Positions 5,393-23,187 of a stretch of 64,000 nucleotides of DNA are shown here, one piece after another (within the stretch, counting starts at the first letter, position 1; the number at the start of each line of letters is the position of its first letter). Source of the stretch: Dehalococcoidia bacterium (lineage in GTDB: Bacteria > Chloroflexota > Dehalococcoidia > Lucifugimonadales > Lucifugimonadaceae); the NCBI GenBank assembly GCA_965205245.1, contig CBDBGE010000005.1, positions 888,770 to 952,769 of the forward strand, in the 5' to 3' direction. The notes beneath the pieces are model-generated. The model saw only the letters and a program-made list of their open reading frames with translations. It did not search any database and was not told the origin of the DNA. A program made the position numbers and the translations under genes.

Positions 5393-6397
5393 ATGGGACT
5401 GACCGCAGGATACGTTAGCCGGCGCGTACTACTTTTTCTGGTAGTCGTTTGGGCTGCGGCTTCGATAAATTTCGTCGTTCCACGCCTCGCGCCAGGCGAT
5501 CCCACGGCAGCAATCGTGGCGCGCCTCGAGTCCCAGGGGGGCCGCGTTGAAAACTCAAAGGCGCTGATCCAGGCGTACAGGGAGAAATTCGGGCTCGACA
5601 AGCCGATACTGCTTCAGTACGGCCTGTACCTGAGGAGTTTGCCCAACTTCGACCTTGGTTTCTCCATCAGCTTTTTCCCGACAACGGTAACCGGTCTCAT
5701 CGCCCGGCACCTTCCCTGGACGGTTGGCCTTCTTCTGACCAGCCTCTTCTTTTCATTCGCCGTGGGCAGCATACTGGGGGCGCTTATGGTTTGGCCCAGG
5801 AGCGCGCGGGCATTGAAGGTGGTCGCTCCGTTCACGATGGTCATGGCCGCGATTCCCTACTATCTGATGGCCCTATTGTTGCTCTGGGGACTGGCCTTTA
5901 CGTTTTCCATATTCCCTATATTCGGCGCGGCGGCCATCGGAAGCGAACTGAAAGGATTCGCCAGGTTTGGGGAGATCCTTTACTTCTCTACCCTTCCAGC
6001 GCTTTCGATCGTCATATCGAGCATCGGGCTATGGGCCGTGACCATGAGGGGCATCATGGTGAGTACCCTGGGTGAAGACTTTCTCACCCTGGCCGAGGCG
6101 AAAGGGTTAAGGGGTCCGCGCATCTTTTTCTGGTACGGCATGCGTAACGCCATGCTGCCCCAGGTCACCGGGCTCGCCATCGCCATAGGGCAGGTAATGG
6201 CGGGGTCCGTGATTGTGGAAGTCCTGTTTTCCTACCCCGGGGTCGGACACCTGTTATTCGAGGCGATACGCACGAATGACTATCCGGTTATCCAGGGGAT
6301 CACGTTTTTGCTCGTAGTATCGGCGGCAGGGGCTGTCCTCATCATGGACTTGATGTATCCGCGCCTCGATCCCCGCATCAGTTACGCAGCGAAGTGA
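5393..6397 (+). CDS. ABC transporter permease, DppB/OppB type
   Basis: 334 aa polytopic protein ending ...MDLMYPRLDPRISY. It is a paralog of 396..1319. Confidence 0.9.
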   Translation: MGLTAGYVSRRVLLFLVVVWAAASINFVVPRLAPGDPTAAIVARLESQGGRVENSKALIQAYREKFGLDKPILLQYGLYLRSLPNFDLGFSISFFPTTVTGLIARHLPWTVGLLLTSLFFSFAVGSILGALMVWPRSARALKVVAPFTMVMAAIPYYLMALLLLWGLAFTFSIFPIFGAAAIGSELKGFARFGEILYFSTLPALSIVISSIGLWAVTMRGIMVSTLGEDFLTLAEAKGLRGPRIFFWYGMRNAMLPQVTGLAIAIGQVMAGSVIVEVLFSYPGVGHLLFEAIRTNDYPVIQGITFLLVVSAAGAVLIMDLMYPRLDPRISYAAK

Positions 6398-7409: not shown

Positions 7410-8282
7410 ATGTCAAACAGGCGCACGAACTGGGGCCGTTGGGGAGAGTCGGATGAGCGGGGCATGCTCAACGAACTCACCCCGGACCGCGTCATGGCGG
7501 CCCTTGCCCTGGTCGGCACCGGCAAGGTCTACAGCCTCGGCGCGCCCGTCGGGCCGGACGGGCCTGTCCACGCGACTCGCAATAAGTCCTGGCACATCAT
7601 GAACGTCATCAACAACAATCCTGAGCCGGGCGGTGAAGGCGGCGCAGACGACATCCTCGTCACCCAGTGCCACGCCTCCACGCACATCGACGCCCTTTGC
7701 CACGCATGGAAGAACAGCGAGCTATACAACGGTCACCCGGCAAGTGAAGTAACCCCGGAGGGCGCGCATAAGTGCGGCGTCCAGAACGTTCAATGGGTCA
7801 TCACCAGGGGCGTGATGCTGGACATACCCGGCCTGAAGGGCCTCGACCGCGTTGACGGCAGGTACGCCGTCACTCCTCAAGACCTCGACGATGCCGCCGA
7901 CCGGCAGGAGTCGGAAATCAGGCCTGGGGACGCCGTCCTTGTAAGGACCGGTTGGTATAAGACGTACGCGGAGGGCGACGTCGATTTCGGCGGCGACTAC
8001 CCCGGCGTCAGCAGGACTGTGTGCGACTGGCTGTACAACCATGACGTAGTCGCTCTCGGCGCGGACAACGTCGCAGTCGAGATATTTCCCCCTGAACCGG
8101 AGTCGAACGGCGGCCTTCCGGTCCACCAGACCATGCTCAACGATCTGGGTGGATACCTGGTCGAATTTCTGAACCTGGAAGAGCTGGCAGAGGACAAGGT
8201 CTACGAGTTCCTGTTCGTAGCCGCTCCGCTCCGCATCAGCGGCGGCGTCGGCAGCCCGATAAACCCGTTGGCCATTGTCTGA
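7410..8282 (+). CDS. cyclase-family protein (kynurenine-formamidase-like metal hydrolase), paralog 1
   Basis: NWGRWGESDERGMLN... and the metal motif CHASTHIDALCH (H-x3-H-x-D-x3-H). An RBS (GAAAGGA) precedes ATG 7410. Confidence 0.8.
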   Translation: MSNRRTNWGRWGESDERGMLNELTPDRVMAALALVGTGKVYSLGAPVGPDGPVHATRNKSWHIMNVINNNPEPGGEGGADDILVTQCHASTHIDALCHAWKNSELYNGHPASEVTPEGAHKCGVQNVQWVITRGVMLDIPGLKGLDRVDGRYAVTPQDLDDAADRQESEIRPGDAVLVRTGWYKTYAEGDVDFGGDYPGVSRTVCDWLYNHDVVALGADNVAVEIFPPEPESNGGLPVHQTMLNDLGGYLVEFLNLEELAEDKVYEFLFVAAPLRISGGVGSPINPLAIV

Positions 8283-12199: not shown

Positions 12200-13135
12200 A
12201 TGAGCACGCATAGATTTTCACAGCCGCTCAACGCTGGCCTGCATCCCGGTAACGTCGTCAGGGTGACGTGGTGGGGCGACTCCACGATCGCCATTCAGAG
12301 CGCCGATCGAACGATCGTCATCGATCCGTCGGCGAACCTGGAGCAGGACGACTTCGATTTCGTGTTCTGCACGCACGAACACTACGCGCATTCCGACCCC
12401 GAAACAGTGGAACGCCTGACGCGCAGCAGCCGTTTCAAACGCATGTACATCGCACGTTCATGTCTCTACCCGTCCGACAAACCCCACGCTCGTTATCTGC
12501 GGTTCCTTAGCGACCCTCTCTGGCAAATAGAGAAGTACGTGATTTTCTATCCCAAGCACTACGATCACACCGTCCCCCGGGGCGCTGAAGGAGACACAGC
12601 GCGATTGGCCGGGACTGGCCGTGGAGCATGGTCGGAGGAGATCGCTTCAGGAGCCTGGTCGCCGGGCGGCGGCACTCCGCGGCCGTTCGCAGGGATCGAC
12701 GAGATTTGGACCGACGGCTGGCACATCGAAGGCATGGAAATGATCGGCGACGACCCCGAGGTGCCGTATCCCGTTCGTGGAGCCATGCCACAGTTGGGCT
12801 TCCTTATAGAAGACCTCAGTTCCGGCGTTTCGTTCTGCCACCTCGGCGCCAATCGAAAGTCCTACCCAGAGATGGAAGCGGTCCGCGGGCGAGTCGACAT
12901 CCTTTTCCTCCATGTCGGCAGAATGAGCCCCGGCGACGAGGATGAGGCGCTGAGACTCATTGCGCCGCGCTGCGTCGTGCCAGTGGGGTGGCGGACCGGG
13001 GTCGAGGCATCAGACGACGGTGATTTTGGGCCGGTGGTGAATCCCGAAAGTTACGTCCAGAGGCTGAATGAAGTCGCCGATGACTTGGGGTTCGCGGTGC
13101 GACAACTATCTCCCGGTGTGGCGTACGGAGTTTAG
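12200..13135 (+). CDS. MBL-fold (UlaG-like) protein with a degenerate metal motif
   Basis: VTWWGDSTIAIQSADRTIVIDP...FCTHEHYAHSDPE. The HxHxDH motif reads HEHYAH, with Asp replaced by Ala. Confidence 0.65.
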   Translation: MSTHRFSQPLNAGLHPGNVVRVTWWGDSTIAIQSADRTIVIDPSANLEQDDFDFVFCTHEHYAHSDPETVERLTRSSRFKRMYIARSCLYPSDKPHARYLRFLSDPLWQIEKYVIFYPKHYDHTVPRGAEGDTARLAGTGRGAWSEEIASGAWSPGGGTPRPFAGIDEIWTDGWHIEGMEMIGDDPEVPYPVRGAMPQLGFLIEDLSSGVSFCHLGANRKSYPEMEAVRGRVDILFLHVGRMSPGDEDEALRLIAPRCVVPVGWRTGVEASDDGDFGPVVNPESYVQRLNEVADDLGFAVRQLSPGVAYGV

Positions 13136-13195: not shown

Positions 13196-14143
13196 ATGAA
13201 TGAAAGCACACCCACTCTCGATGTCGGATTGGCCAACGGCTCCGACGTTCGGCTCACGTGGTGGGGCAACGCCACGGTGGTCATCGAGAATGGCGACCGC
13301 GCCATCGTCGTCGATCCATACGTTCACCCCCAACGCGGCAGGTTCCAGTACGCATTCTGCTCCCACGAGCACTACGACCACGCCTACCCCGAAACCGTGA
13401 AGCGCCTGGTCGAGGGAGAGGGATTCAAGAAGATCATTATTCCCAGGTCCTGCCTGTATCCCTCCACCCGCTTTTTCTCGCGCCAGTTGGCGTTCCTGGA
13501 ACCGGAGCAGTACATCGTGCTCTATCCGAAGCACTATGACAGGTCCGCCACCCGTACCGGTGACTCGAAGTACGTGGGCCACTCCGACGCCTGGACCGAA
13601 GGCGAAGAATCGATCTTCCCGGAACCCCGTGAACTGCACATGGACGATTGGCACGTCGAAGGGTTCGAGATGGTCGGAGAGGACCCTGAATTACCGTTTC
13701 CGCTCAGCGGCCCCATGCCGCAACTCGGCTTCTTCATAGAAGAACTGCAGTCCGGCGCGTCTTTCTATCACTTCGGCGACAACCACTGGACCTATGAGGA
13801 AATGTCCGCCGCCGCAGGAAGGCTCGACATAATGCTCCTGCCGATCGGCAAAATGGGGGTCGACGAGGACGCTCGGGCGATGGACCTGATGAAGCCCAAG
13901 ATCGTCATCCCGATCCACTGGAGATACGAAGGGGAGGACTACCCCATTCCCGCCCTGTATCAACGACACGAGCCGCCGGACCAACAGATCCGCGGCTACC
14001 ACCTGCCGCACCCGGGCGACCCACCATACCCCGGCCAGCCGCATAGCCCATTCGAGTACATCGAGCAGTTGGAAGAGCGCGCTCGCGAACGCGGCATCAC
14101 CGTGGCCCAGATCAAGGCGGGAATCCCCCACCGCGTAGTGTGA
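13196..14143 (+). CDS. MBL-fold (UlaG-like) metallo-hydrolase
   Basis: LTWWGNATVVIENGDRAIVVDP...FCSHEHYDHAYPE has an intact HxHxDH motif. It is a paralog of 12200..13135. Confidence 0.7.
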   Translation: MNESTPTLDVGLANGSDVRLTWWGNATVVIENGDRAIVVDPYVHPQRGRFQYAFCSHEHYDHAYPETVKRLVEGEGFKKIIIPRSCLYPSTRFFSRQLAFLEPEQYIVLYPKHYDRSATRTGDSKYVGHSDAWTEGEESIFPEPRELHMDDWHVEGFEMVGEDPELPFPLSGPMPQLGFFIEELQSGASFYHFGDNHWTYEEMSAAAGRLDIMLLPIGKMGVDEDARAMDLMKPKIVIPIHWRYEGEDYPIPALYQRHEPPDQQIRGYHLPHPGDPPYPGQPHSPFEYIEQLEERARERGITVAQIKAGIPHRVV

Positions 14144-15623: not shown

Positions 15624-15836
15624 ATGCACAAGTACGAGATCATCATCTACTGGAGCAACGCAGATGGAGCCTTCGTAGCCGAGGTCCCTGAGCTCCAGGG
15701 ATGTGCTGCGCACGGCGACACGCAGGAAGCGGCGTTAGCCGAAATATGCCAGGCGATGGACCTGTGGGTCGAAACAGCTCGTGAATTCGGCGATAGAGTC
15801 CCGGAACCAAAAGGCGAACGGCTGATGCTGGCGTAA
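15624..15836 (+). CDS. HicB-family (UPF0150) antitoxin-like protein, no HicA partner seen
   Basis: 70 aa. YEIIIYWSNADGAFVAEVPELQGCAAHGDTQEAALAEICQAM is a typical HicB/UPF0150 fold signature. Confidence 0.7.
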   Translation: MHKYEIIIYWSNADGAFVAEVPELQGCAAHGDTQEAALAEICQAMDLWVETAREFGDRVPEPKGERLMLA

Positions 15837-15858
15837 CGCGCCCGCGTTTCGTATGAGT

Positions 15859-15864
15859 TAGAGT
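15859..15864 (+). promoter_or_regulatory. -10-like box TAGAGT, module A
   Basis: It sits at the same position (41 nt before the mini-ORF ATG) as the boxes in modules B and C. No clear -35 box. Confidence 0.3.
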
Positions 15865-15905
15865 GAGACAGTCGTAAATCTCATTTCGTTGCCACCCGCG
15901 TCCAC

Positions 15906-15986
15906 ATGACTCTCTCAATCCACATCCACCCTGCTCTCACGGCCACTTGCCGTGAGCGTTCCATTATTGGGAGGTACCAGGCGTAA
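15906..15986 (+). CDS. 26-codon mini-ORF A (leader peptide or small peptide), not in the ORF track
   Basis: MTLSIHIHPALTATCRERSIIGRYQA*. It aligns without gaps to mini-ORFs B and C and shares their TAA stop. Confidence 0.5.
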   Translation: MTLSIHIHPALTATCRERSIIGRYQA

Positions 15987-16017
15987 CCCGCAGGATGAAA
16001 GCGGCAACTGGACGTAA

Positions 16018-16042
16018 CCTCCCGAAGTCGGGAGGTTTTTTT
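16018..16042 (+). terminator. intrinsic terminator, module A leader
   Basis: CCTCCCG-aagt-CGGGAGG followed by TTTTTTT. Confidence 0.8.
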
Positions 16043-16138
16043 GTGAGGGCGTGTAACCAAAAAAACTTGGCGTTTCACGCCACAGTCTCGAACTCTCGTT
16101 ACGAATGATCACCTGAGCACTGTGCGGAATCGAATCCT

Positions 16139-16969
16139 ATGGAATCTTCGAGTGGCCTACTGCGGGCCGCGCACACAGCCGGCGGCGAGACTGTTGCCGT
16201 GATACGGGCCGTGGCAGGCGCCATGCGGGGTCAGTTCAGCATGAGCCGAAGGACCTTCCAGGACCTTCTGCCAACGGTCACGCACCCGTCCTTCGCCCTG
16301 ATACTGATGGCTGTGTTCGCACACGCGCGACGCGAAGACCTTGCTTCATATGCCCTGGTTGCCCCGTTCCTCATGAGCGTAGCTACGACCGCGGTCTTCG
16401 TGGCGAGCGAAGTGTTGACCCGCGAACGTGACTTTCAGACGCTCGAGTTGTCGGTTGCGAGCCCGGCGTCCTTTCCAGCCGTCCTCTTCACCCGGATCAT
16501 GGTCATCACCCTGATATCGCTAGTCGGCATCGTCGAAAGCTGGCTGATCATACGATTCGTGTTCGGCGCGACCGTCACTATCCATCATCCTGAAGTGTTC
16601 GTGGCGACCATGCTTGTGACCGCGTTCGCCTCGGGCGGCACGGCTCTGATCCCGGCGGCGTTGTTCTGTTTCGCGCAGGCGGCGCGCACTTATCAGAATT
16701 CAATCTTGTATCCCGTCCTGCTGGTCTCGGGCGTTCTGGTACCGGTCGCCGTGCTTCCGGACTGGCTGGAGCCGGTCAGCCGGCTGGTTTACCTGTACTG
16801 GTCGGCGGACCTCCTCAGGGACTCCATGCAGACCGCAACGCCCGAAGGAGTCCTGTGGGGACTGGGAATTATGGCGATTCTGGGCGCGGGATCTGCCTTC
16901 ATTGGCGGCGCGCTGATCATCAGGATGCTCAACTACCTCAGGCAGGAAGGCAGGCTTGGGATCCTGTGA
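16139..16969 (+). CDS. ABC-2 type exporter permease, module A subunit 1
   Basis: 276 aa with about 6 TM segments. It is a full-length homolog of 18106..18936 and 20095..20925. Confidence 0.85.
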   Translation: MESSSGLLRAAHTAGGETVAVIRAVAGAMRGQFSMSRRTFQDLLPTVTHPSFALILMAVFAHARREDLASYALVAPFLMSVATTAVFVASEVLTRERDFQTLELSVASPASFPAVLFTRIMVITLISLVGIVESWLIIRFVFGATVTIHHPEVFVATMLVTAFASGGTALIPAALFCFAQAARTYQNSILYPVLLVSGVLVPVAVLPDWLEPVSRLVYLYWSADLLRDSMQTATPEGVLWGLGIMAILGAGSAFIGGALIIRMLNYLRQEGRLGIL

Positions 16970-17754
16970 ACACCCTGCGCCTCTTCCGATATAGCTTGTT
17001 GGTGGGAATAAGGGAATTCACCTATCTCTGGGACTGGAAGACATGGGCAGGAGGTTGGGTTATCCAGATGCTTGCCTCGGCGGCCCTATTCTCACTCTTC
17101 GCCCGGCTGTTCAATTCTCCCGAACACGAGCAGTTCCTCCTGGTTGGGAACGCGGTGGTCGTTGGCGCAATTGGTGTGGGCTGGGCGATTCCAATGGCCA
17201 CGAGCGACCGGTGGGCCGGGACCTACCCTTTGCTTGTGGTTGCGCCTGCCAGCCTGGTACCCGCGATAGTCGGTCGGACTTCGATCTGGCTGCCCTCCGG
17301 TGTCGCGACTTCGCTCCTGACTTTCCTCATCCTGGGCAGTCTGTTCGATCTGGCGCTGTCCTGGCCGAACTCGCTTCTTATCGTTCCCCTGGTTGCCCTA
17401 ACGTGCGCCAGCGCCTATTGCTTTTCACTCTTCCTCGGTTCCGCGGTCATTCGCATACCCCAAATGCCAACCCTGTTTCTTGTAACCATGACAATGGTGT
17501 TGAGAGCGTTCTGCGGGGTCAGCGTGCCGATAACCTTTTGGCCCGGGTACGTGCAGTTCATGGTCAAGTTGCTCCCGTTGACCCATGGCCTCCAGGCGAT
17601 CCGATTGGTCCTGGACCAGGCCCCTGCCGGCGCGGTTCTCCAGGCCGCCGCTCTCGAGGCCGCGGTGGGGCTGGGTTGGATAACCTTAGCCGTCCTGGCC
17701 ATGGACTTGATGGCCAACGCCGGCCGCAAAGACGGCTCCATCGAATTTGTTTGA
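16966..17754 (+). CDS. ABC-2 type exporter permease, module A subunit 2
   Basis: The GTG start overlaps the upstream stop (GTGA), as in module B. VNTLRLFRYSLLVGIREFTYLWDWKTW... is homologous to 18933..19721. Confidence 0.85.
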   Translation: MNTLRLFRYSLLVGIREFTYLWDWKTWAGGWVIQMLASAALFSLFARLFNSPEHEQFLLVGNAVVVGAIGVGWAIPMATSDRWAGTYPLLVVAPASLVPAIVGRTSIWLPSGVATSLLTFLILGSLFDLALSWPNSLLIVPLVALTCASAYCFSLFLGSAVIRIPQMPTLFLVTMTMVLRAFCGVSVPITFWPGYVQFMVKLLPLTHGLQAIRLVLDQAPAGAVLQAAALEAAVGLGWITLAVLAMDLMANAGRKDGSIEFV

Positions 17755-17823
17755 GTCGCGAGGGCAAAAAACGGGGCTCAGCAGCGCCACCGTGACAAAC
17801 AACCCTCGACCACGGTAAAACTG

Positions 17824-17832
17824 TGGTAGTGT
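17824..17832 (+). promoter_or_regulatory. extended -10-like box TGgTAGTGT, module B
   Basis: TGn plus TAGTGT, ending 41 nt before the mini-ORF ATG. Confidence 0.4.
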
Positions 17833-17873
17833 GGAAAGACGTTAAGTCTCACACCCCTGCCACCATTGTCCGA

Positions 17874-17954
17874 ATGACATTCCTCCTTGACATCCACCGA
17901 GTCCTCATTGTGACCAGCTATGGGTGGCACGCGTTTGGGAGGGACCAATCGTAA
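17874..17954 (+). CDS. 26-codon mini-ORF B, not in the ORF track
   Basis: MTFLLDIHRVLIVTSYGWHAFGRDQS*. Confidence 0.5.
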   Translation: MTFLLDIHRVLIVTSYGWHAFGRDQS

Positions 17955-17985
17955 TTGGCGTGCGGAAGTCGTTGGCTGATTGGGA

Positions 17986-18010
17986 CCTCCCGAAATCGGG
18001 AGGTTTTTTT
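17986..18010 (+). terminator. intrinsic terminator, module B leader (also ends the module A transcript)
   Basis: CCTCCCG-aaat-CGGGAGG followed by TTTTTTT. Confidence 0.85.
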
Positions 18011-18105
18011 GTTAGGAGGCGTAAGTGAACACGAACCTGGATTCTGTCGCCGTCCTCTCGTCGCTGACCAGGGAATAACGTGAGTACCTTGCGGGATCAA
18101 CTGAC

Positions 18106-18936
18106 ATGAGCGTGAGGAATGGCCTGTCGCGGGCCGGACATATGGCCATGGACGGTCCCATGAGCGTCGCCAGACCGCTGGTCGGCGCCACCCGGGCCCA
18201 ATTTCGCATGAGTCGCCGGGACATCCAGGACCTCACCATGGGGATCACGCAGCCGGCATTTACGTTGGTCCTGATGGCCATCTTCAAATACGCGGGCCGC
18301 GATGACCTTGCTCCCTACGCTCTGATCGCTCCGATGCTCATGGGCGTCGGGGGAATGGCAGTGTCCGTCGCCAGCGAGTTACTGACCCGCGAGCGTGAAT
18401 TCCAGACGCTCGAGCTGTCCGTGGCATGCCCCGTTCCATTTCCCCTGGTCATTCTTCCCCGAATACTGGTGGTCACATCGATCTCCCTGTTCGGAATTGT
18501 GGAAAGCTGGTTGATTATCCGCTTCGTCTTCGGCGTTGATGTCACGGTCCACCATTACGGGCTATTCGCTGCGACGATGGTCCTGACCGCGTTCGCTGCC
18601 GGTGGGACGGCCATGATCCCCGCGGCGCTGTTCTGTTTCGCCCAGGCTGCCCGGACTTTCCAGAACTCGATTACTTACCCCGCGTACCTCTTCTCGGGCA
18701 TCCTGGTACCTATCGCCGCGTTCCCGGACTGGCTCGAGCCGGTCAGTCGTCTGATCTTCCTTCACTGGTCCGGGGCCCTTCTTACGGAGTCGATGCAGCC
18801 ATCCGAGCCCGATGGAGTCCTGCTAAAGCTGGGCATCATGGCGGCTCTTGGCATTGGAGCGGCCTTTATCGGGGGCGCGCTAATGGCCAGAATGCTCGAT
18901 TTCCTGAGGCGTGAGGGGAGGTTGGGGATTCTGTGA
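18106..18936 (+). CDS. ABC-2 type exporter permease, module B subunit 1
   Basis: 276 aa polytopic protein, paralog of 16139..16969. Confidence 0.85.
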   Translation: MSVRNGLSRAGHMAMDGPMSVARPLVGATRAQFRMSRRDIQDLTMGITQPAFTLVLMAIFKYAGRDDLAPYALIAPMLMGVGGMAVSVASELLTREREFQTLELSVACPVPFPLVILPRILVVTSISLFGIVESWLIIRFVFGVDVTVHHYGLFAATMVLTAFAAGGTAMIPAALFCFAQAARTFQNSITYPAYLFSGILVPIAAFPDWLEPVSRLIFLHWSGALLTESMQPSEPDGVLLKLGIMAALGIGAAFIGGALMARMLDFLRREGRLGIL

Positions 18937-19721
18937 ATTACCTACGCCAGTTCCGATTTGGCCTGATGGCAGGCATAGGGGAATTCACGTTCATGTGGAA
19001 CTGGAAGACCTGGTTCGGTGGCTGGTTGGTCCAGATGCTGGCGCAAGCCGCTTTCTTCTCGTTGGTCGCCAGGTTGTTCGATTCGCCTGAGCACGAACGG
19101 TTCTTGCTGATCGGTAACGCCCTTGCCGTCGGCGTACACACGGCCTGCTGGGGCATTGTGTCGACCACGTGGGACAGGTGGACAGGCGCTTACCCCCTTC
19201 TCGTAATTGCGCCGACCAGCATGGTACCTGCGGTCATCGGGAGAACCTCCGTTTGGCTGGCTTCGGCCGTGGCAACTTCGCTTTTCACATTCCTGATTCT
19301 TGCCGCGATTTTTGATCTGGGCTTGCCATGGCCTGAAGCTTTGGTCCTTATCCCCCTCGTGTTCTTGACGTGTGCAAGCACTTTTTGTTTCTCGGTATTC
19401 ATCGGCGCACTCATAACGCGTCAGAGCTACCTCCGAAACCTTGTCATGGGAATTGTGAACGTGGTACTGCGAGCCTTCTGTGGGATAGCGGTCCCCATAG
19501 CCTTTTGGCCCGACTACGTGCAGTTCGTAGTCCGGTTGTTGCCCATAACCCACGGCCTGGAGGCCATACGGTTGGTGCTCGACAAGGGACCTGCAACCGA
19601 AATTCTGCTGGCCGCTGCCCTGGAAGCCGCAGTTGGGCTTGGGTGGATCGTACTCATAGTCCTGGTGATGGACCGCATGGCCGATTCCGGTCGCGCCAAC
19701 GGTTCGATCGAGTTCATCTGA
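18933..19721 (+). CDS. ABC-2 type exporter permease, module B subunit 2
   Basis: 262 aa polytopic protein. The GTG start overlaps the upstream stop. Confidence 0.85.
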   Translation: MNYLRQFRFGLMAGIGEFTFMWNWKTWFGGWLVQMLAQAAFFSLVARLFDSPEHERFLLIGNALAVGVHTACWGIVSTTWDRWTGAYPLLVIAPTSMVPAVIGRTSVWLASAVATSLFTFLILAAIFDLGLPWPEALVLIPLVFLTCASTFCFSVFIGALITRQSYLRNLVMGIVNVVLRAFCGIAVPIAFWPDYVQFVVRLLPITHGLEAIRLVLDKGPATEILLAAALEAAVGLGWIVLIVLVMDRMADSGRANGSIEFI

Positions 19722-19810
19722 TAATCGCAAGTACGAGGAGGCTCTCCTCCCGCGTATTGCCAGCCGTACGGCCTGAACATGACATCCACCCCACACCTGC
19801 ACCAATTCTG

Positions 19811-19819
19811 TGGTAGCGT
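19811..19819 (+). promoter_or_regulatory. extended -10-like box TGgTAGCGT, module C
   Basis: TGn plus TAGCGT, ending 42 nt before the mini-ORF ATG. Confidence 0.4.
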
Positions 19820-19861
19820 GAAATGGTCGCGGATCTCATTCCCCCGCCGCCCCTTGCCAAA

Positions 19862-19942
19862 ATGATCTTCCGAATTGACTGCCATTCCGTTCTCGTGGCG
19901 AACTGCTATGAGTGGTCCACTTTTGGGAGGAATCAATCGTAA
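19862..19942 (+). CDS. 26-codon mini-ORF C, not in the ORF track
   Basis: MIFRIDCHSVLVANCYEWSTFGRNQS*. Confidence 0.5.
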   Translation: MIFRIDCHSVLVANCYEWSTFGRNQS

Positions 19943-19974
19943 TTGACGTTTGGACAACGGCAACTGAGTTGGAA

Positions 19975-20000
19975 CCTCCCGAAATCGGGAGGTTCTTTGT
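19975..20000 (+). terminator. intrinsic terminator, module C leader (weaker U-tract)
   Basis: CCTCCCG-aaat-CGGGAGG followed by TTCTTTGT. Confidence 0.7.
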
Positions 20001-20094
20001 TAGAGGGCGTCATTGAACACAAAGCTGGGTTCTGTCGCCTTCCCTTCGTCACTGTATTAACAAGTCAAGTGGGCACGGTGCGGAAACAACTGAC

Positions 20095-20925
20095 ATGAAC
20101 TTGCGGAGTGGCCTGCTGAGGGCCGGACAACTAGCTGTGGGCGGGCTCCTGGCCGTCGTGCGGCCGTTGCTTGGTTCCATCAGGGCCCAGATCACCACTA
20201 CCCGGCGTGACATTCACGACGTCACTATGGGTATCACGCAGCCCGCATTTACGTTTGCCCTGATGGCGGTCTTCAAGTACGCCGGGCGCGAAGACTTGGC
20301 CCCTTACGCCCTGATCGCCCCGATGCTCATGGGTGTGGGCGGCATGGCAGTGTCGGTGGCGAGTGAGGTCATGACACGGGAGCGTGACTTTCAGACTCTC
20401 GAGTTGACCGTCGCAAGCCCAGCGCCGATCCCCGTGATCATCTTCTCCCGGATCATGGTCATCACGTCAATCTCCCTTCTCGGGATTGTCCAAAGCTGGC
20501 TGATCGTCAGGTTTGTCTTTGGTGTGGACGTCACGATCCACCATCCCTGGTTGTTCGCGGCGACGTTGCTGCTGACCGCGTTCGCGGCCGGAGGGACCGC
20601 ACTGATCACCGCGGCCCTGTTCTGTTTCGCGCAAGCAGCCAGGACATTCCAGAACTCGATCACGTTCCCGGCCTATCTCTTCTCCGGGATCCTGGTACCG
20701 ATAGCGGCGTTTCCTGATTGGCTGGAACCGGTAAGCCGGGTGATCTTCCTTTACTGGTCGGGGACCCTGCTCAGGGACGCGATGCAATCGACGACCCCCG
20801 AAGGAGTCTTCGTGAAGCTGGGCATCATGCTGATCCTGGGCGGAAGCGCGGCCTTGATAGGAGGGGCGTTGATTGTTCGCATGCTCAATTACCTCAGGCG
20901 GGAAGGCACGCTGGGGGTCCTGTGA
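20095..20925 (+). CDS. ABC-2 type exporter permease, module C subunit 1
   Basis: 276 aa, paralog of 16139..16969 and 18106..18936. Confidence 0.85.
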   Translation: MNLRSGLLRAGQLAVGGLLAVVRPLLGSIRAQITTTRRDIHDVTMGITQPAFTFALMAVFKYAGREDLAPYALIAPMLMGVGGMAVSVASEVMTRERDFQTLELTVASPAPIPVIIFSRIMVITSISLLGIVQSWLIVRFVFGVDVTIHHPWLFAATLLLTAFAAGGTALITAALFCFAQAARTFQNSITFPAYLFSGILVPIAAFPDWLEPVSRVIFLYWSGTLLRDAMQSTTPEGVFVKLGIMLILGGSAALIGGALIVRMLNYLRREGTLGVL

Positions 20926-21710
20926 ACACGCTGCAACGCATCCGCTTTGGTCTCCTCGTGGGCACGCGGGACTTCACCCTCTATTGGAACTGGAAAACGT
21001 GGTTCGGTGGCTGGATGGTCCAGATGGTGGCCCAGGCAGCCTTCTTCTCCATGTTTGCCAGGCTGTTCGACTCGCCTTACCACGAGCAGTACCTACTTAT
21101 AGGCAATGCAGTCGCTGTCGGCGCGCAAGCGGTGTGTTGGACAATTCCATCCTCGACGTGGGACCGTTGGACTGGAACGTATCCCCTCCTGGTTATTGCG
21201 CCTGCCAGTCAATTCCCAGCCGCCGTCGGACGGAACTCCGTTTGGATGCTATCCGGCATCGCCACTACGCTCGTGGTGTTCGTCATTCTGGGCGCGGTCT
21301 TCAACCTGTCTCTGCCATGGCCCAACACGCTGTTCCTGGTTCCGTTGGTCGTGTTGACGCAGGTCAGCACGTTCTGCTTCGCACAATTCCTCGGGGTCTT
21401 TGTCATACGCCAATACCAAATGCGAAACCTGTTACTTGGCACGGTGACAATGGGCGTAAGAGCGTTCTGCGGCGTAAGTGTGCCTATCGCCTTCTGGCCG
21501 GGCTCTGTCCAGTTCGTCGTCAAATTGTTGCCCATCACCCACGGGCTCGAGGCTATCCGGCTCTTGCTGGACGGGGCGCCCGCACATGCCATTCTCCAAG
21601 CCGCCGCGTTAGAAGCAGTGGTGGGCACGGGTTGGCTTGTCCTTGCAATGTTGGCGATGGATCGCATAGCCGAGTCCGGCCGCAAAAGCGGTTCAATCGA
21701 GTTCATTTGA
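20922..21710 (+). CDS. ABC-2 type exporter permease, module C subunit 2
   Basis: The GTG start at 20922 was chosen by homology (VNTLQRIRFGLLVGTRDFTLYWNWKTW...). The longer track ORF 20718..21710 is an out-of-gene extension. Confidence 0.85.
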   Translation: MNTLQRIRFGLLVGTRDFTLYWNWKTWFGGWMVQMVAQAAFFSMFARLFDSPYHEQYLLIGNAVAVGAQAVCWTIPSSTWDRWTGTYPLLVIAPASQFPAAVGRNSVWMLSGIATTLVVFVILGAVFNLSLPWPNTLFLVPLVVLTQVSTFCFAQFLGVFVIRQYQMRNLLLGTVTMGVRAFCGVSVPIAFWPGSVQFVVKLLPITHGLEAIRLLLDGAPAHAILQAAALEAVVGTGWLVLAMLAMDRIAESGRKSGSIEFI

Positions 21711-21735
21711 AAACCACATGTACGGGGAGGCAGCC

Positions 21736-22677
21736 ATGAACGCAGTAACGACCACGGACCTCCGCAGGGTCTACAAGAGCAGGGACGGCAATCCCGATGT
21801 AGTCGCGCTCGACCGCGTCTCGATGGACATCAGGGAGGGCGAGGTCCATGGGCTCCTGGGACCGAACGGCGCAGGCAAGACTACCCTGGTGAAGGTGCTG
21901 TCTACCGTCCTCCTCCCTACGAGCGGGTCCGCTTCGATACTTGGACACGACGTGGTCCGCGAGACCAAGGCGGTCCGGCCCCTGATCGGCATCGTCCTGG
22001 GCGGCGACCGCGGGCTTTACTGGCGACTGACCGGCCGTCAGAACCTGGAGTACTGGGCTGCGCTCTACAACGTCCCCGCCGGAACGGCGAAGGAACGCAT
22101 CCCTAAGTTGCTGGAAATGGTCGGCCTCACCGACCGCGCCGACTACCTCGTCGAGGGCTACTCCCGCGGAATGCGGCAGCGCATCCACCTTGCCAGGGGG
22201 CTGGTCGGCGACGCGCGCGTGCTTTTCCTCGACGAGCCGACCGCCGGCATGGACCCGTTGGCTTCCCGCGATTTTCGCAACCTCGTCGGGAATCTACGCT
22301 CCGAGGGCCGGACGGTCCTGCTGACTACCCACGATATGGCGGAGGCGGAAGCGGTGTGCGATCGGGTAACGCTCATCGACAAGGGGAAAATCATCGCGGT
22401 CGAGACCCCGCGGTCGCTCAGCAGACTGATCGCCGGCAACGAGCGGATCGACTTCGAGGGCGGTCCGGACGGATTGAAGAACTCTCTACAAACACTGCCG
22501 GGCGTGACTTCAGTGAACCCGCTGCCCGATGGCGGCAACCGCGTGGAACTAGAGGGGGATGACGCCAAGCAGGGCGTCCTGAAGGCCCTCGTAGACGCCG
22601 GAGTCACGACGATATCCACGTCGCGGCCAAGTCTCGAAGAGGTCTACGTCCGGGTGATCGGAGACAAGACGGAATGA
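21736..22677 (+). CDS. ABC-2 exporter ATP-binding protein (DrrA/CcmA-like), the only NBD in the cluster
   Basis: A strong RBS (GGGGAGG) lies 5 nt before ATG 21736. Walker A GPNGAGKTT, signature YSRGMRQR, Walker B LFLDEPTAGMD. Confidence 0.9.
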   Translation: MNAVTTTDLRRVYKSRDGNPDVVALDRVSMDIREGEVHGLLGPNGAGKTTLVKVLSTVLLPTSGSASILGHDVVRETKAVRPLIGIVLGGDRGLYWRLTGRQNLEYWAALYNVPAGTAKERIPKLLEMVGLTDRADYLVEGYSRGMRQRIHLARGLVGDARVLFLDEPTAGMDPLASRDFRNLVGNLRSEGRTVLLTTHDMAEAEAVCDRVTLIDKGKIIAVETPRSLSRLIAGNERIDFEGGPDGLKNSLQTLPGVTSVNPLPDGGNRVELEGDDAKQGVLKALVDAGVTTISTSRPSLEEVYVRVIGDKTE

Positions 22678-22678
22678 G

Positions 22679-22873
22679 CTAACGCGGTCTGCCGGATCGC
22701 GGTCCTAACCGGCGTACGGTTCTGACTAGCCCGCGCAGTAACCGGATCACAAAACGGACGCGTGGCACGACCCAAAACAGTGGATTGCGCCCTGAACGGC
22801 TTCTTCGGGCTTCCAGGTCCGCCTTCGCCGCATCATAGTCGCGCATCAAATGCTGTTGATCGGGCGATGGCAA
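22679..22873 (-). CDS. small Arg-rich protein of unknown function (paralog of 22937..23152)
   Basis: 64 codons from a TTG immediately after an in-frame TAG. It shares PxPD..QQ...(D/E)Y...NP(L/V)F...L(V/I)RTVRR with its neighbour. Start is uncertain. Confidence 0.45.
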   Translation of the reverse strand: MPSPDQQHLMRDYDAAKADLEARRSRSGRNPLFWVVPRVRFVIRLLRGLVRTVRRLGPRSGRPR

Positions 22874-22936
22874 CTAGGCAGACAAATTACGATTCTTCCT
22901 GCGGTACCGCGTTGAAAAGGTGATCGGATACCCGAA

Positions 22937-23152
22937 CTACTGCTTCCGACGTACTGTTCTGATTAGCCAACGAGCGCTGTCGAAAAGCGCCCGCCCGAAG
23001 GCCAAAAACAGCCGCATCAGGGTCGTGATCAGGAACACTGGGTCGCCAACCCACGGCATCCGCCTCCGAGATTTATGACCCTTCTTAAATTCACGATATT
23101 CGTGGATGTAATACTGCTGATTTTGTAGATCTGGAGGTGGCAAGTTGACCAT
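22937..23152 (-). CDS. small Arg-rich or membrane-associated protein of unknown function
   Basis: 71 aa. An RBS (AAGGAA) lies about 8 nt before the ATG. It has a hydrophobic core PVFLITTLMRLFLAF and the C-terminus ...WLIRTVRRKQ. Confidence 0.6.
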   Translation of the reverse strand: MVNLPPPDLQNQQYYIHEYREFKKGHKSRRRMPWVGDPVFLITTLMRLFLAFGRALFDSARWLIRTVRRKQ

Positions 23153-23187
23153 GCTGCTGTTCCTTTTCTTGTGGCTACCTTAGCAAG

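Follow-up and report, generated by a model that had tools for sequence, protein, structure and literature searches.

The stretch of DNA analysed here (64,000 nucleotides of a Dehalococcoidia bacterium, contig CBDBGE010000005.1; hereafter 'the window') contains, at positions 15855 to 22677, an array of genes for ATP-binding cassette (ABC) transporters of the ABC-2 type. According to the open reading frame (ORF) listing and translations, three units, each made of a leader, a gene for a 276-amino-acid (aa) permease (P1) and a gene for a 262-aa permease (P2), are followed by one ATPase gene. In what we regard as the best explanation, probable if far from assured, the array would consist of three paralogous cassettes (attenuator leader, P1 gene and translationally coupled P2 gene) closed by the ATPase gene. 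Each P1/P2 pair would form a heterodimeric type V (ABC-2) membrane domain, the three pairs would share the ATPase, the leaders would act as ribosome-mediated attenuators, and the whole array would be induced jointly for the efflux of toxic compounds. Such an array in cis of one to three exchangeable type V cassettes, with a terminal ATPase gene and a repeated attenuator, seems to be undescribed; the underlying principles are known.

The permease pairs and their ATPase gene

The preliminary description of this DNA, made from the sequence alone, had reported the three units and the GTGA overlap within each pair, and the ORF calls bore both out: in all three pairs, the GTG start of P2 overlaps the TGA stop of P1. 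It had also given the periods of the repeat as 1968 and 1987 nucleotides (nt); they are indeed nearly equal, their exact values being 1967 and 1989 nt. In each cassette, a promoter-like box with its attenuator (A, B or C) comes first and the permease pair (A1A2, B1B2 or C1C2) second; after C2, 25 nt lead to the ATPase gene (Table 1). In a pattern scan of the array, no terminator was found between any P2 stop and the following leader. Across the three modules, paralogues have 63 to 74% identity at the protein level and 67 to 75% at the DNA level; P1 and P2 are about 25% identical to each other. The same array is present in a related complete chromosome (locus L001; OZ220681.1). Judged by sequence, the module copies are therefore old paralogues and not an assembly duplication, as had been proposed from their clear divergence.

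Table 1. Coordinates in the window of the leaders, switches and genes of the array
Feature	Coordinates	Strand	Description	Support
Leader A	15855..16042	+	-10-like box TAGAGT 15859-15864; ORF 15906-15986; hairpin P1 15936-15956	
Leader A switch	antiterminator arms 15967-15980 and 16012-16025 (GGGAGG 15969-15974); terminator stem 16015-16038, U-run to 16042		Predicted attenuator	pattern scan 16016-16037
A1	16139..16969	+	276-aa ABC-2 permease, module type alpha	PF01061 64.9 bits; 88% identity with L001_m1; dN/dS 0.12
A2	16966..17754	+	262-aa ABC-2 permease, GTG start on A1 stop (GTGA)	PF01061 30.9 bits; 95% with L001 orthologue; dN/dS 0.05
Leader B	17822..18010	+	box TGTGGTAGTGT 17822-17832; ORF 17874-17954; hairpin P1 17904-17924	
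Leader B switch	antiterminator arms 17935-17948 and 17980-17993; terminator 17983-18006, U-run to 18010		Predicted attenuator	pattern scan 17982-18007
B1	18106..18936	+	276-aa ABC-2 permease, type beta	Pfam 56.2 bits; 94% with L001_m2; dN/dS 0.08
B2	18933..19721	+	262-aa ABC-2 permease, GTGA overlap	Pfam 28.0 bits; 89% with L001 orthologue; dN/dS 0.12
Leader C	19809..19998	+	box TGTGGTAGCGT 19809-19819; ORF 19862-19942; hairpin P1 19892-19912	
Leader C switch	antiterminator arms 19923-19936 and 19969-19982; terminator 19972-19995, then T-tract TTCTTT (weaker)		Predicted attenuator	
C1	20095..20925	+	276-aa ABC-2 permease, type gamma	Pfam 63.7 bits; AF2 model; dN/dS 0.09
C2	20922..21710	+	262-aa ABC-2 permease, GTGA overlap	Pfam 19.6 bits (below cut-off); 92% with L001 orthologue; dN/dS 0.09
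ATPase (NBD) gene	21736-22677 (with SD 21724..22677)	+	DrrA/ABCA-like, DrrA1-3_C domain	PF00005 and PF13732; dN/dS 0.07

In agreement with the earlier assignment, all six permeases match the Pfam ABC2_membrane profile (PF01061), five of them above the gathering cut-off of 26.9 bits; C2 falls below it, yet is 66% identical to A2 and B2. Matches to the NCBIfam models drrB and nodJ were remote only, with scores of 20.6 to 22.7 bits against TIGR01247 (drrB), below the family cut-off of 223.05. A P1 profile gave no match among PDB sequences. C1, the one permease modelled with AlphaFold2 (AF2), yielded a model of moderate confidence (pLDDT 72.7, pTM 0.71). Compared with PDB structures using Foldseek, this model matched KpsM, Wzm, TarG, NosY and the membrane domains of ABCG/ABCH, with TM-scores of 0.6 to 0.72 and probability 1.00. 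Because of these matches, the permeases are, as far as the model goes, membrane domains of type V (ABC-2) exporters, the fold of which is characterized by an N-terminal interface helix and six transmembrane helices. DrrB/DrrC, LanE/LanG and YbhR/YbhS likewise combine two different permeases in one transporter. The paralogue types have in common a loop motif after transmembrane segment 2 (TM2), SE..TRER.FQTLE in P1 and DRW.G.YPLL in P2; in ABC-2 permeases, we take this loop to be the coupling region.

The single ATPase gene with a strong ribosome binding site that had been noted after the third pair was confirmed. Its Shine-Dalgarno (SD) sequence, GGGGAGG at 21724-21730, lies six bases upstream of the ATG and is by far the strongest among the seven genes of the array, the SDs of the permease genes being weak. 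A tblastn search detected no second DrrA-like ATPase in the window; the other ABC ATPases encoded there belong to oligopeptide-type and OpuA-type importers and are 27 to 32% identical to that of the array. The closest PDB sequences are the nucleotide-binding domains (NBDs) of ABCA7/3/4/1, 4yer of T. maritima, Rv1218c and NosF. The best NCBIfam match is drrA (TIGR01188), with 274.7 bits, under the cut-off of 312.45. With ATPase and permeases both below the cut-offs, the locus is, on sequence grounds, related to the DrrAB daunorubicin-resistance subfamily, yet not a member of it.

A terminator/antiterminator switch in the leaders

The three intergenic leaders are homologous, with 65 to 70% nt identity, and each carries a conserved promoter-like box. 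That each pair has a box and a leader of its own had been seen before; what had been missed is that the leaders contain a terminator/antiterminator switch together with a leader ORF. Each is about 185 nt long and comprises the box, an ORF of 26 codons, a covarying antiterminator (GGGAGG...CCUCCC) and a terminator, invariant in sequence, in which CCUCCC is used a second time. The box has the consensus [C/T]GTG[G/T]TAG[C/A/T][G/T]T, which resembles an extended -10 element (TGnTAnnnT); it lies about 40 nt before the ORF and is predicted to start a 5' untranslated region (UTR) of about 30 nt. Of the modules in the loci examined, 14 distinct ones have a homologous leader in front of them, and in all these loci the composite motif was found only upstream of such modules. 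Thirteen diverged leaders (mean identity 69%) were aligned (alignment A5), and the leader of the second module of locus L024 (L024_m2) was judged by eye. No Rfam family matched in gathering mode; two of the three window leaders gave sub-threshold matches to Phe_leader (RF01859), of 27 and 25 bits for a gathering score of 55.

Applied to the full alignment, RNAalifold returned a hairpin and the terminator. With the 3' arm of the terminator removed, it returned the hairpin and a long-range helix, UUGGGAGG-nn-YCAG ... CUGR-nn-CCUCCCGA, which is the antiterminator. The hairpin lies within codons 11 to 17 and shows compensatory changes (CUCACGGC/GCCGUGAG, CUCGCGG/CCGCGAG and CUCAUGGC/GCCAUGAG); the sequence of its loop is not conserved. 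For hairpin and antiterminator together, 94% of the alignment cells pair, compared with 32 to 52% in slid controls, and six pairs are changed on both sides (0/500 shuffles). In the antiterminator taken separately, these values are 92% of cells and four pairs with double changes. The terminator, made of CCUCCC, a tetraloop and GGGAGG followed by U6-7, pairs in 96% of cells and is invariant in sequence, as expected if CCUCCC must fit two partners. This segment being common to both helices, antiterminator and terminator are mutually exclusive. Terminators A and B were detected by the pattern scan; terminator C has the weaker T-tract. The stretch that begins with the ATG and finishes with the U-run measures 136 to 138 nt in 13/13 leaders. 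The P1 gene starts only 35 nt after the terminator in L001 m1 and L014 m1, so that the promoter must lie upstream of the terminator; this argues for an attenuator rather than for the end of a preceding unit. We conclude that, in silico, each leader is a transcription attenuator with a previously uncatalogued terminator/antiterminator switch. The leaders of L003 and L004, of diverged sequence, have the same design and fold alike into terminator or antiterminator: an ORF of 37 codons, preceded by an SD (AGGAG-N7-ATG), has an in-frame GGG AGG one codon before its end and is followed by GGCCUCCC...GGGGGCC-U5.

The leader ORF is made of ATG, 25 codons and TAA (81 nt). Its start, stop and length are invariant, and no in-frame stop occurs, in 13/13 aligned leaders and in L024_m2; frame 0 is the only stop-free frame. 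In all 13, GGGAGG forms codons 22 and 23, and the stop comes 9 nt later. We computed that, once the P-site has reached codon 17, the footprint of the ribosome includes the antiterminator arm. The last sense codon is NCG, followed by TAA (15981-15986, 17949-17954 and 19937-19942; A5 columns 122-126), with an invariant CG-UAA and a first base that varies; neither this end nor GGG AGG ever varies synonymously. The NCG-UAA end is a constraint at the RNA level or of the termination context. An R-x-R near the carboxyl terminus of the leader peptide is found in only some copies. Two other roles for GGGAGG were rejected: pausing at rare codons is ruled out, since 16% of the Arg codons here are AGG and 22% of the Gly codons are GGG, and no start codon that an SD could serve is conserved at workable spacing in A5. 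The ORF pattern fits a leader in which the act of translation would matter and not its product, and it argues against a functional peptide; it is also compatible with a switch made of RNA only.

In the mechanism that we propose, modelled on trp and on BmrB/BmrCD, a ribosome arriving early enough at codon 17 or beyond would cover GGGAGG, the terminator would form and transcription would stop. A slowed or stalled ribosome would leave GGGAGG free, the antiterminator would form first, and RNA polymerase would read into the permease genes. Because the terminator usually exceeds the antiterminator in stability, by 0 to 12 kcal/mol, the latter would have to win kinetically, as described for the BmrB leader of Bacillus subtilis (see below). 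By analogy, the inducing signal is most likely slowed translation.

Several observations weigh against this mechanism. The leader ORFs of the window have no SD (most genes of the window likewise have none), no excess at third positions, and a ratio of nonsynonymous to synonymous substitution rates (dN/dS) of 0.4 to 0.7, so that the case for translation comes down to the preserved frame, start, stop and length. Neither a regulatory codon run nor a known arrest motif was found in the leader ORFs. In an equilibrium energy scan over ribosome positions, no stall position favoured the antiterminator, which means that the model would depend on kinetic control. No consistent anti-antiterminator emerged, since the position at which pyrimidine-rich early codons could face GGGAGG varies between copies. 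Finally, the attenuator is not obligatory for the family, since some modules of relatives carry a different long leader without the switch, or no leader (L024_m1).

Some of these points would be accommodated by attenuators that are real but independent of the ribosome, the 26-codon frame being incidental and the choice between the two helices being made by a small-molecule ligand or an RNA-binding protein that recognizes the conserved hairpin and the 5' UTR, as in riboswitches or in control of the PyrR or TRAP kind. We consider this unlikely, albeit a serious contender. It would account for the missing SD, the missing codon-position periodicity and the dN/dS of the ORF, and for the absence of synonymous variation in GGG AGG and NCG-UAA, which places the constraint at the RNA level; the covariation of the hairpin also agrees with it. 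A candidate for the RNA-binding factor would be the 70-aa HicB-like/UPF0150 protein encoded at 15624-15836, the gene of which adjoins the array in many loci. However, several leader-bearing loci have no HicB gene beside the inner cassettes, no Rfam riboswitch matched, and the hairpin loop is not conserved in sequence. An incidental frame also sits poorly with the invariance of ATG, TAA and the 81-nt length in leaders of 69% mean identity, with frame 0 alone being stop-free, and with the independent L003/L004 variant, in which an ORF with a good SD is retained and stops just past the in-frame GGGAGG. Control by the translating ribosome is the reading that we prefer.

As to the HicB-like ORF itself, it lies on the + strand directly upstream of leader A, only 38 nt from the aminotransferase gene, and no HicA partner is found beside it. 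A homologous gene borders the array in L001, L002, L005, L014, L023, L024 and L026. The protein could be a bystander or a trans-acting factor.

Composition of related arrays and use of the ATPase

A scan of a genome collection gave five loci, all in metagenome-assembled genomes (MAGs) of Dehalococcoidia, and loci L014 to L027 were added through a protein search and contig look-ups. By tblastn, 17 distinct Dehalococcoidia loci in which the 3' end of the array is present have one to three modules and exactly one DrrA-type ATPase gene, at the end. Arrays of three modules are those of the window and L001; two modules are found in L005, L014, L015, L023 and L024 (L016 is the same as L015 but cut off before the ATPase gene), and one in L002, L003, L004, L017 to L022 and L025 to L027. 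Most loci are syntenic with the window. One flank holds an oligopeptide importer, two or three genes of the metallo-beta-lactamase (MBL) fold, a class III aminotransferase and often the 70-aa HicB-like gene; on the other are usually found a thiamine pyrophosphate (TPP) enzyme, an Exo_endo_phos gene on the opposite strand, and OpuAC. A scan of metagenomes with the P1 profile returned only eight distant single-module loci (40 to 49% identical), none with this leader.

The P1 and P2 trees are congruent, and six module types were defined: alpha (window m1, L001 m1 and, roughly, L014 m1), beta (window m2, L001 m2), gamma (window m3, L001 m3, L005 m2, L024 m2), delta (L002, L014 m2, L015 m2, L023 m2), epsilon (L005 m1, L023 m1, L017, L021, L022 and, roughly, L015 m1) and zeta (L003, L004). 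Within a type, protein identity is 86 to 96%, equal to that of the ATPases of the same genomes; between types it is 56 to 75%. On this evidence the paralogue types predate these genomes, which differ in the types that they carry: one to three cassettes of at least six types occur in differing combinations at the same syntenic site. In public data, about 14 P1 clusters are found at 80% identity. A sliding comparison of the window with L002 shows nucleotide identity rising from about 70% to about 90% at about position 21700, the junction of P2 and the ATPase gene. The idea that permeases evolve faster than the ATPase (71% against 96% identity to L002) was discarded as an artefact of paralogy, identities within types being equal to those of the ATPase.

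The array of L001 is orthologous one-for-one to that of the window, with 88 to 95% protein identity. Between the two, dN/dS is 0.05 to 0.12 for the six permease genes and 0.07 for the ATPase gene, with dS of about 0.5 to 0.6. Two untranscribed relics among the three modules had been named as what would refute the modular exporter; the sequence comparison indicates that no module is a relic and that all six permease genes are under purifying selection.

Since arrays of one to three modules end in exactly one DrrA-type ATPase gene at 17 loci, sharing is the most economical reading: most likely, one DrrA/ABCA-like ATPase, a protein that is 86 to 96% identical across the clade, serves all three pairs from a common pool. 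What tells against this reading is that gene content is its whole basis. Instead, only module C might use the array ATPase, A and B being powered by ATPases encoded elsewhere or working without it, a possibility that we hold to be improbable. The ATPase gene immediately adjoins C2 alone, attenuators B and C would end transcripts begun at A or B before reaching it, two paralogues of the array ATPase (P0099 and P0102) are encoded on the L003 chromosome, and a module of L024 sits 47 nt behind a different ATPase gene. The lack of another DrrA-like ATPase within the 64-kb window argues against this restriction to C, as do the multi-module arrays of six genomes (window, L001, L005, L014, L015 and L023), where no ATPase of the cognate type lies between modules. 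Furthermore, purifying selection acts on A and B as it does on C and on the ATPase gene, the paralogue types have the loop motif after TM2 in common, and the protein search yielded, from the 3.41-Mb L001 chromosome, only the three P1 homologues of the array.

How a shared ATPase would be expressed follows from the order of the genes. No promoter is visible directly before the ATPase gene, which sits downstream of the third attenuator. Transcripts from upstream cassettes would meet the next attenuator, and the ATPase gene would be transcribed only upon read-through of attenuator C. One signal would probably act on all three switches, since their core is identical. Transcripts from every promoter would then contribute to ATPase synthesis, with translation starting behind the strongest SD, and the whole array would most likely be induced jointly by one signal, namely translation stress such as that caused by ribosome-targeting compounds. 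The preliminary description had instead proposed that one membrane pair is chosen at the transcriptional level. This was not supported: modules A and B need read-through of attenuator C to reach the ATPase gene. Specificity of leader for module is argued against by leader similarity, which follows genome and position and not module type; for instance, the leaders of gamma modules (L005 m2, L024 m2) and of delta modules (L014 m2, L015 m2) are 84 to 89% alike. Because the ATPase gene lies behind the last attenuator and leaders do not co-vary with module type, we favour joint induction over the independent selection of one pair. By analogy, the role of the array is most likely the efflux of toxic compounds or antibiotics; the neighbouring genes of the window (importer, MBL-fold proteins, aminotransferase, HicB) gave no clue to the substrate.

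A bolder view, to which we give little credence, is that of a cassette system at the level of the population: at least six to ten types of heterodimeric membrane domain would be acquired, lost and recombined at a single chromosomal site before a conserved universal ATPase, and the divergent leader peptides would be drug-specific sensors of ribosome arrest, each switching on the exporter pair that matches the translation inhibitor encountered, with basal ATPase. If true, this would amount to a programmable exporter array coupled to sensors, close to the earlier idea.

Least probable by a wide measure is that the 26-codon ORFs encode functional peptides (bacteriocin-like or signalling), each permease pair being a dedicated exporter or immunity pump and the hairpin and terminator setting the ratio of peptide to transporter. 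A small ORF, a leaky terminator and an ABC-2 pair do resemble operons of a precursor and its transporter, LanFEG and SagGHI use two ABC-2 permeases, and the ATPase weakly matches galliderm_ABC (TIGR03740, LanFEG); but that score is 137.8 bits for a cut-off of 309.75, the neighbouring genes include no lantibiotic or two-component system, and the peptides are nearly neutral (dN/dS as given above; leader A retains 14/26 residues between window and L001, whereas the flanking proteins are 88 to 95% identical), RNA pairing accounts for their invariant positions, neither a leader-cleavage motif nor genes for modification or processing were found nearby, and leader similarity does not track module type.

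Further features were observed in and around the arrays. The different leader of some relatives is 370 to 630 nt long, precedes mostly modules of type epsilon (L005 about 7600-8004; L015 about 5600-5987; L017, L021 and L022 about 7630-8000; L026 8367-9000), and contains no GGGAGG/CCUCCC switch; it has a TGCTAAAAT-like box and, in most cases, a conserved end ...CCCGAAATG. This 'type 2' leader of about 400 nt had no match in Rfam. A box GTGACATCCAC(C) is present upstream of the non-first leaders, at 17791-17802 and 19777-19788 of the window, and also in L001, L005, L014, L015 and L023. It lies about 29 nt from the -10-like box, too distant for a normal -35 element, and could either be bound by a regulator or belong to the duplication unit. 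On the L003 chromosome (a contig of 3,645,043 bases), the two ATPase paralogues P0099 (79%) and P0102 (80%) indicate a second locus of the family in some genomes. At the left edge of the arrays of L024 (6448-8953) and L014 (2021-4593), a complete second ABC-2 system is found, with two ABC2_membrane_6 permeases and its own ATPase. In L024 it ends 47 nt before the module without leader; in L014 it is flanked by a duplicated fragment of the aminotransferase gene and a HicB gene, and this duplication suggests insertion by recombination.

Relation to known systems and gene neighbourhood

The closest regulatory parallel is BmrB/BmrCD of Bacillus subtilis, in which a multidrug ABC exporter is controlled by ribosome-mediated transcription attenuation with an antiterminator less stable than the terminator (PMC4191407); antibiotic-responsive attenuators have been reviewed (PMC5418344). 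In both systems a short ORF with a promoter upstream precedes ABC exporter genes and overlaps a terminator and a less stable antiterminator, slowed translation gives read-through (as proposed here for the array), and the role of an anti-antiterminator is unclear. The two differ in that BmrCD is a heterodimer of type IV (ABC_membrane) half-transporters with fused NBDs, whereas the array would encode type V (ABC-2) membrane domains with a separate ATPase. Moreover, the BmrB ORF has 53 codons and contains the terminator, whereas that of the array has 26 and ends inside the antiterminator loop. The sequences have no similarity, the switch of the array is repeated three times, and the array is known from sequence alone. 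With the trp and phe attenuators (Phe_leader, RF01859), the leaders share a leader ORF, alternative hairpins and an intrinsic terminator; unlike them, they have no regulatory codon run, and the genes downstream are for exporters and not for biosynthesis.

As for the transporter, DrrAB/DrrABC (daunorubicin resistance; DrrA-DrrB-DrrC in mycobacteria) likewise has an ATPase with ABC_tran and DrrA1-3_C domains, drrA being the best NCBIfam match here, and DrrB and DrrC are two different ABC-2 permeases of about 260 aa in one transporter. The array differs by its scores under the cut-offs, by the order permease-permease-ATPase, and by its three permease pairs for one ATPase gene.

The preliminary description had stated that no such layout was known. 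This stands for one part only. That an NBD can be shared is established: multitask ATPases of the MsmX/MsiK kind serve several type I sugar importers (PMC7658222). A cis-array of type V pairs with repeated attenuators, by contrast, seems undescribed; tandem ABC-2 permease pairs with one ATPase had no description in the literature searched, a limited search in which absence is no proof of novelty. One ATPase with several membrane units is also the organization of MceG in Mce/YrbE systems and of the EcfAA'T module of group II ECF transporters. Like the array, all these combine one ATPase gene with several distinct sets of membrane domains, which in Mce systems are heterodimeric permease pairs. 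They are, however, importers or act in lipid trafficking, have other folds, and the gene of the shared ATPase usually stands alone, at a distance from the permease operons. In the array, a type V exporter, the ATPase is the last gene in cis and its sharing is inferred.

If the ATPase is truly shared, the multitask NBD principle of importers would also hold for type V (ABC-2) exporters. What varies would then be an entire heterodimeric membrane domain that behaves as a cassette in being duplicated, lost and exchanged, and the arrays would offer a natural system for finding the permease residues that set substrate specificity against a constant motor. The leaders would add to the Dehalococcoidia, most members of which are uncultured, a compact and easily testable terminator/antiterminator switch that is absent from Rfam; to our knowledge, little cis-regulatory RNA has been described in this group. 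Tandem 'orphan' ABC-2 permease pairs should not be taken for pseudogenes or assembly errors.

Two observations concern the neighbourhood of the array. After the ATPase gene, a gene-free stretch of 510 nt extends from 22678 to 23187 of the window. In most relatives (L014 to L022, L024, L026 and L027) this site is occupied by the gene for the TPP-dependent enzyme, apparently missing in the window; only 22709-22895 resembles the region that follows the TPP gene in L017. On the other side, two tandem paralogous MBL-fold (Lactamase_B_3) genes are found on the + strand, at 12200-13135 and 13196-14143. Relatives have two or three copies, so a neighbouring gene family also varies in tandem copy number.

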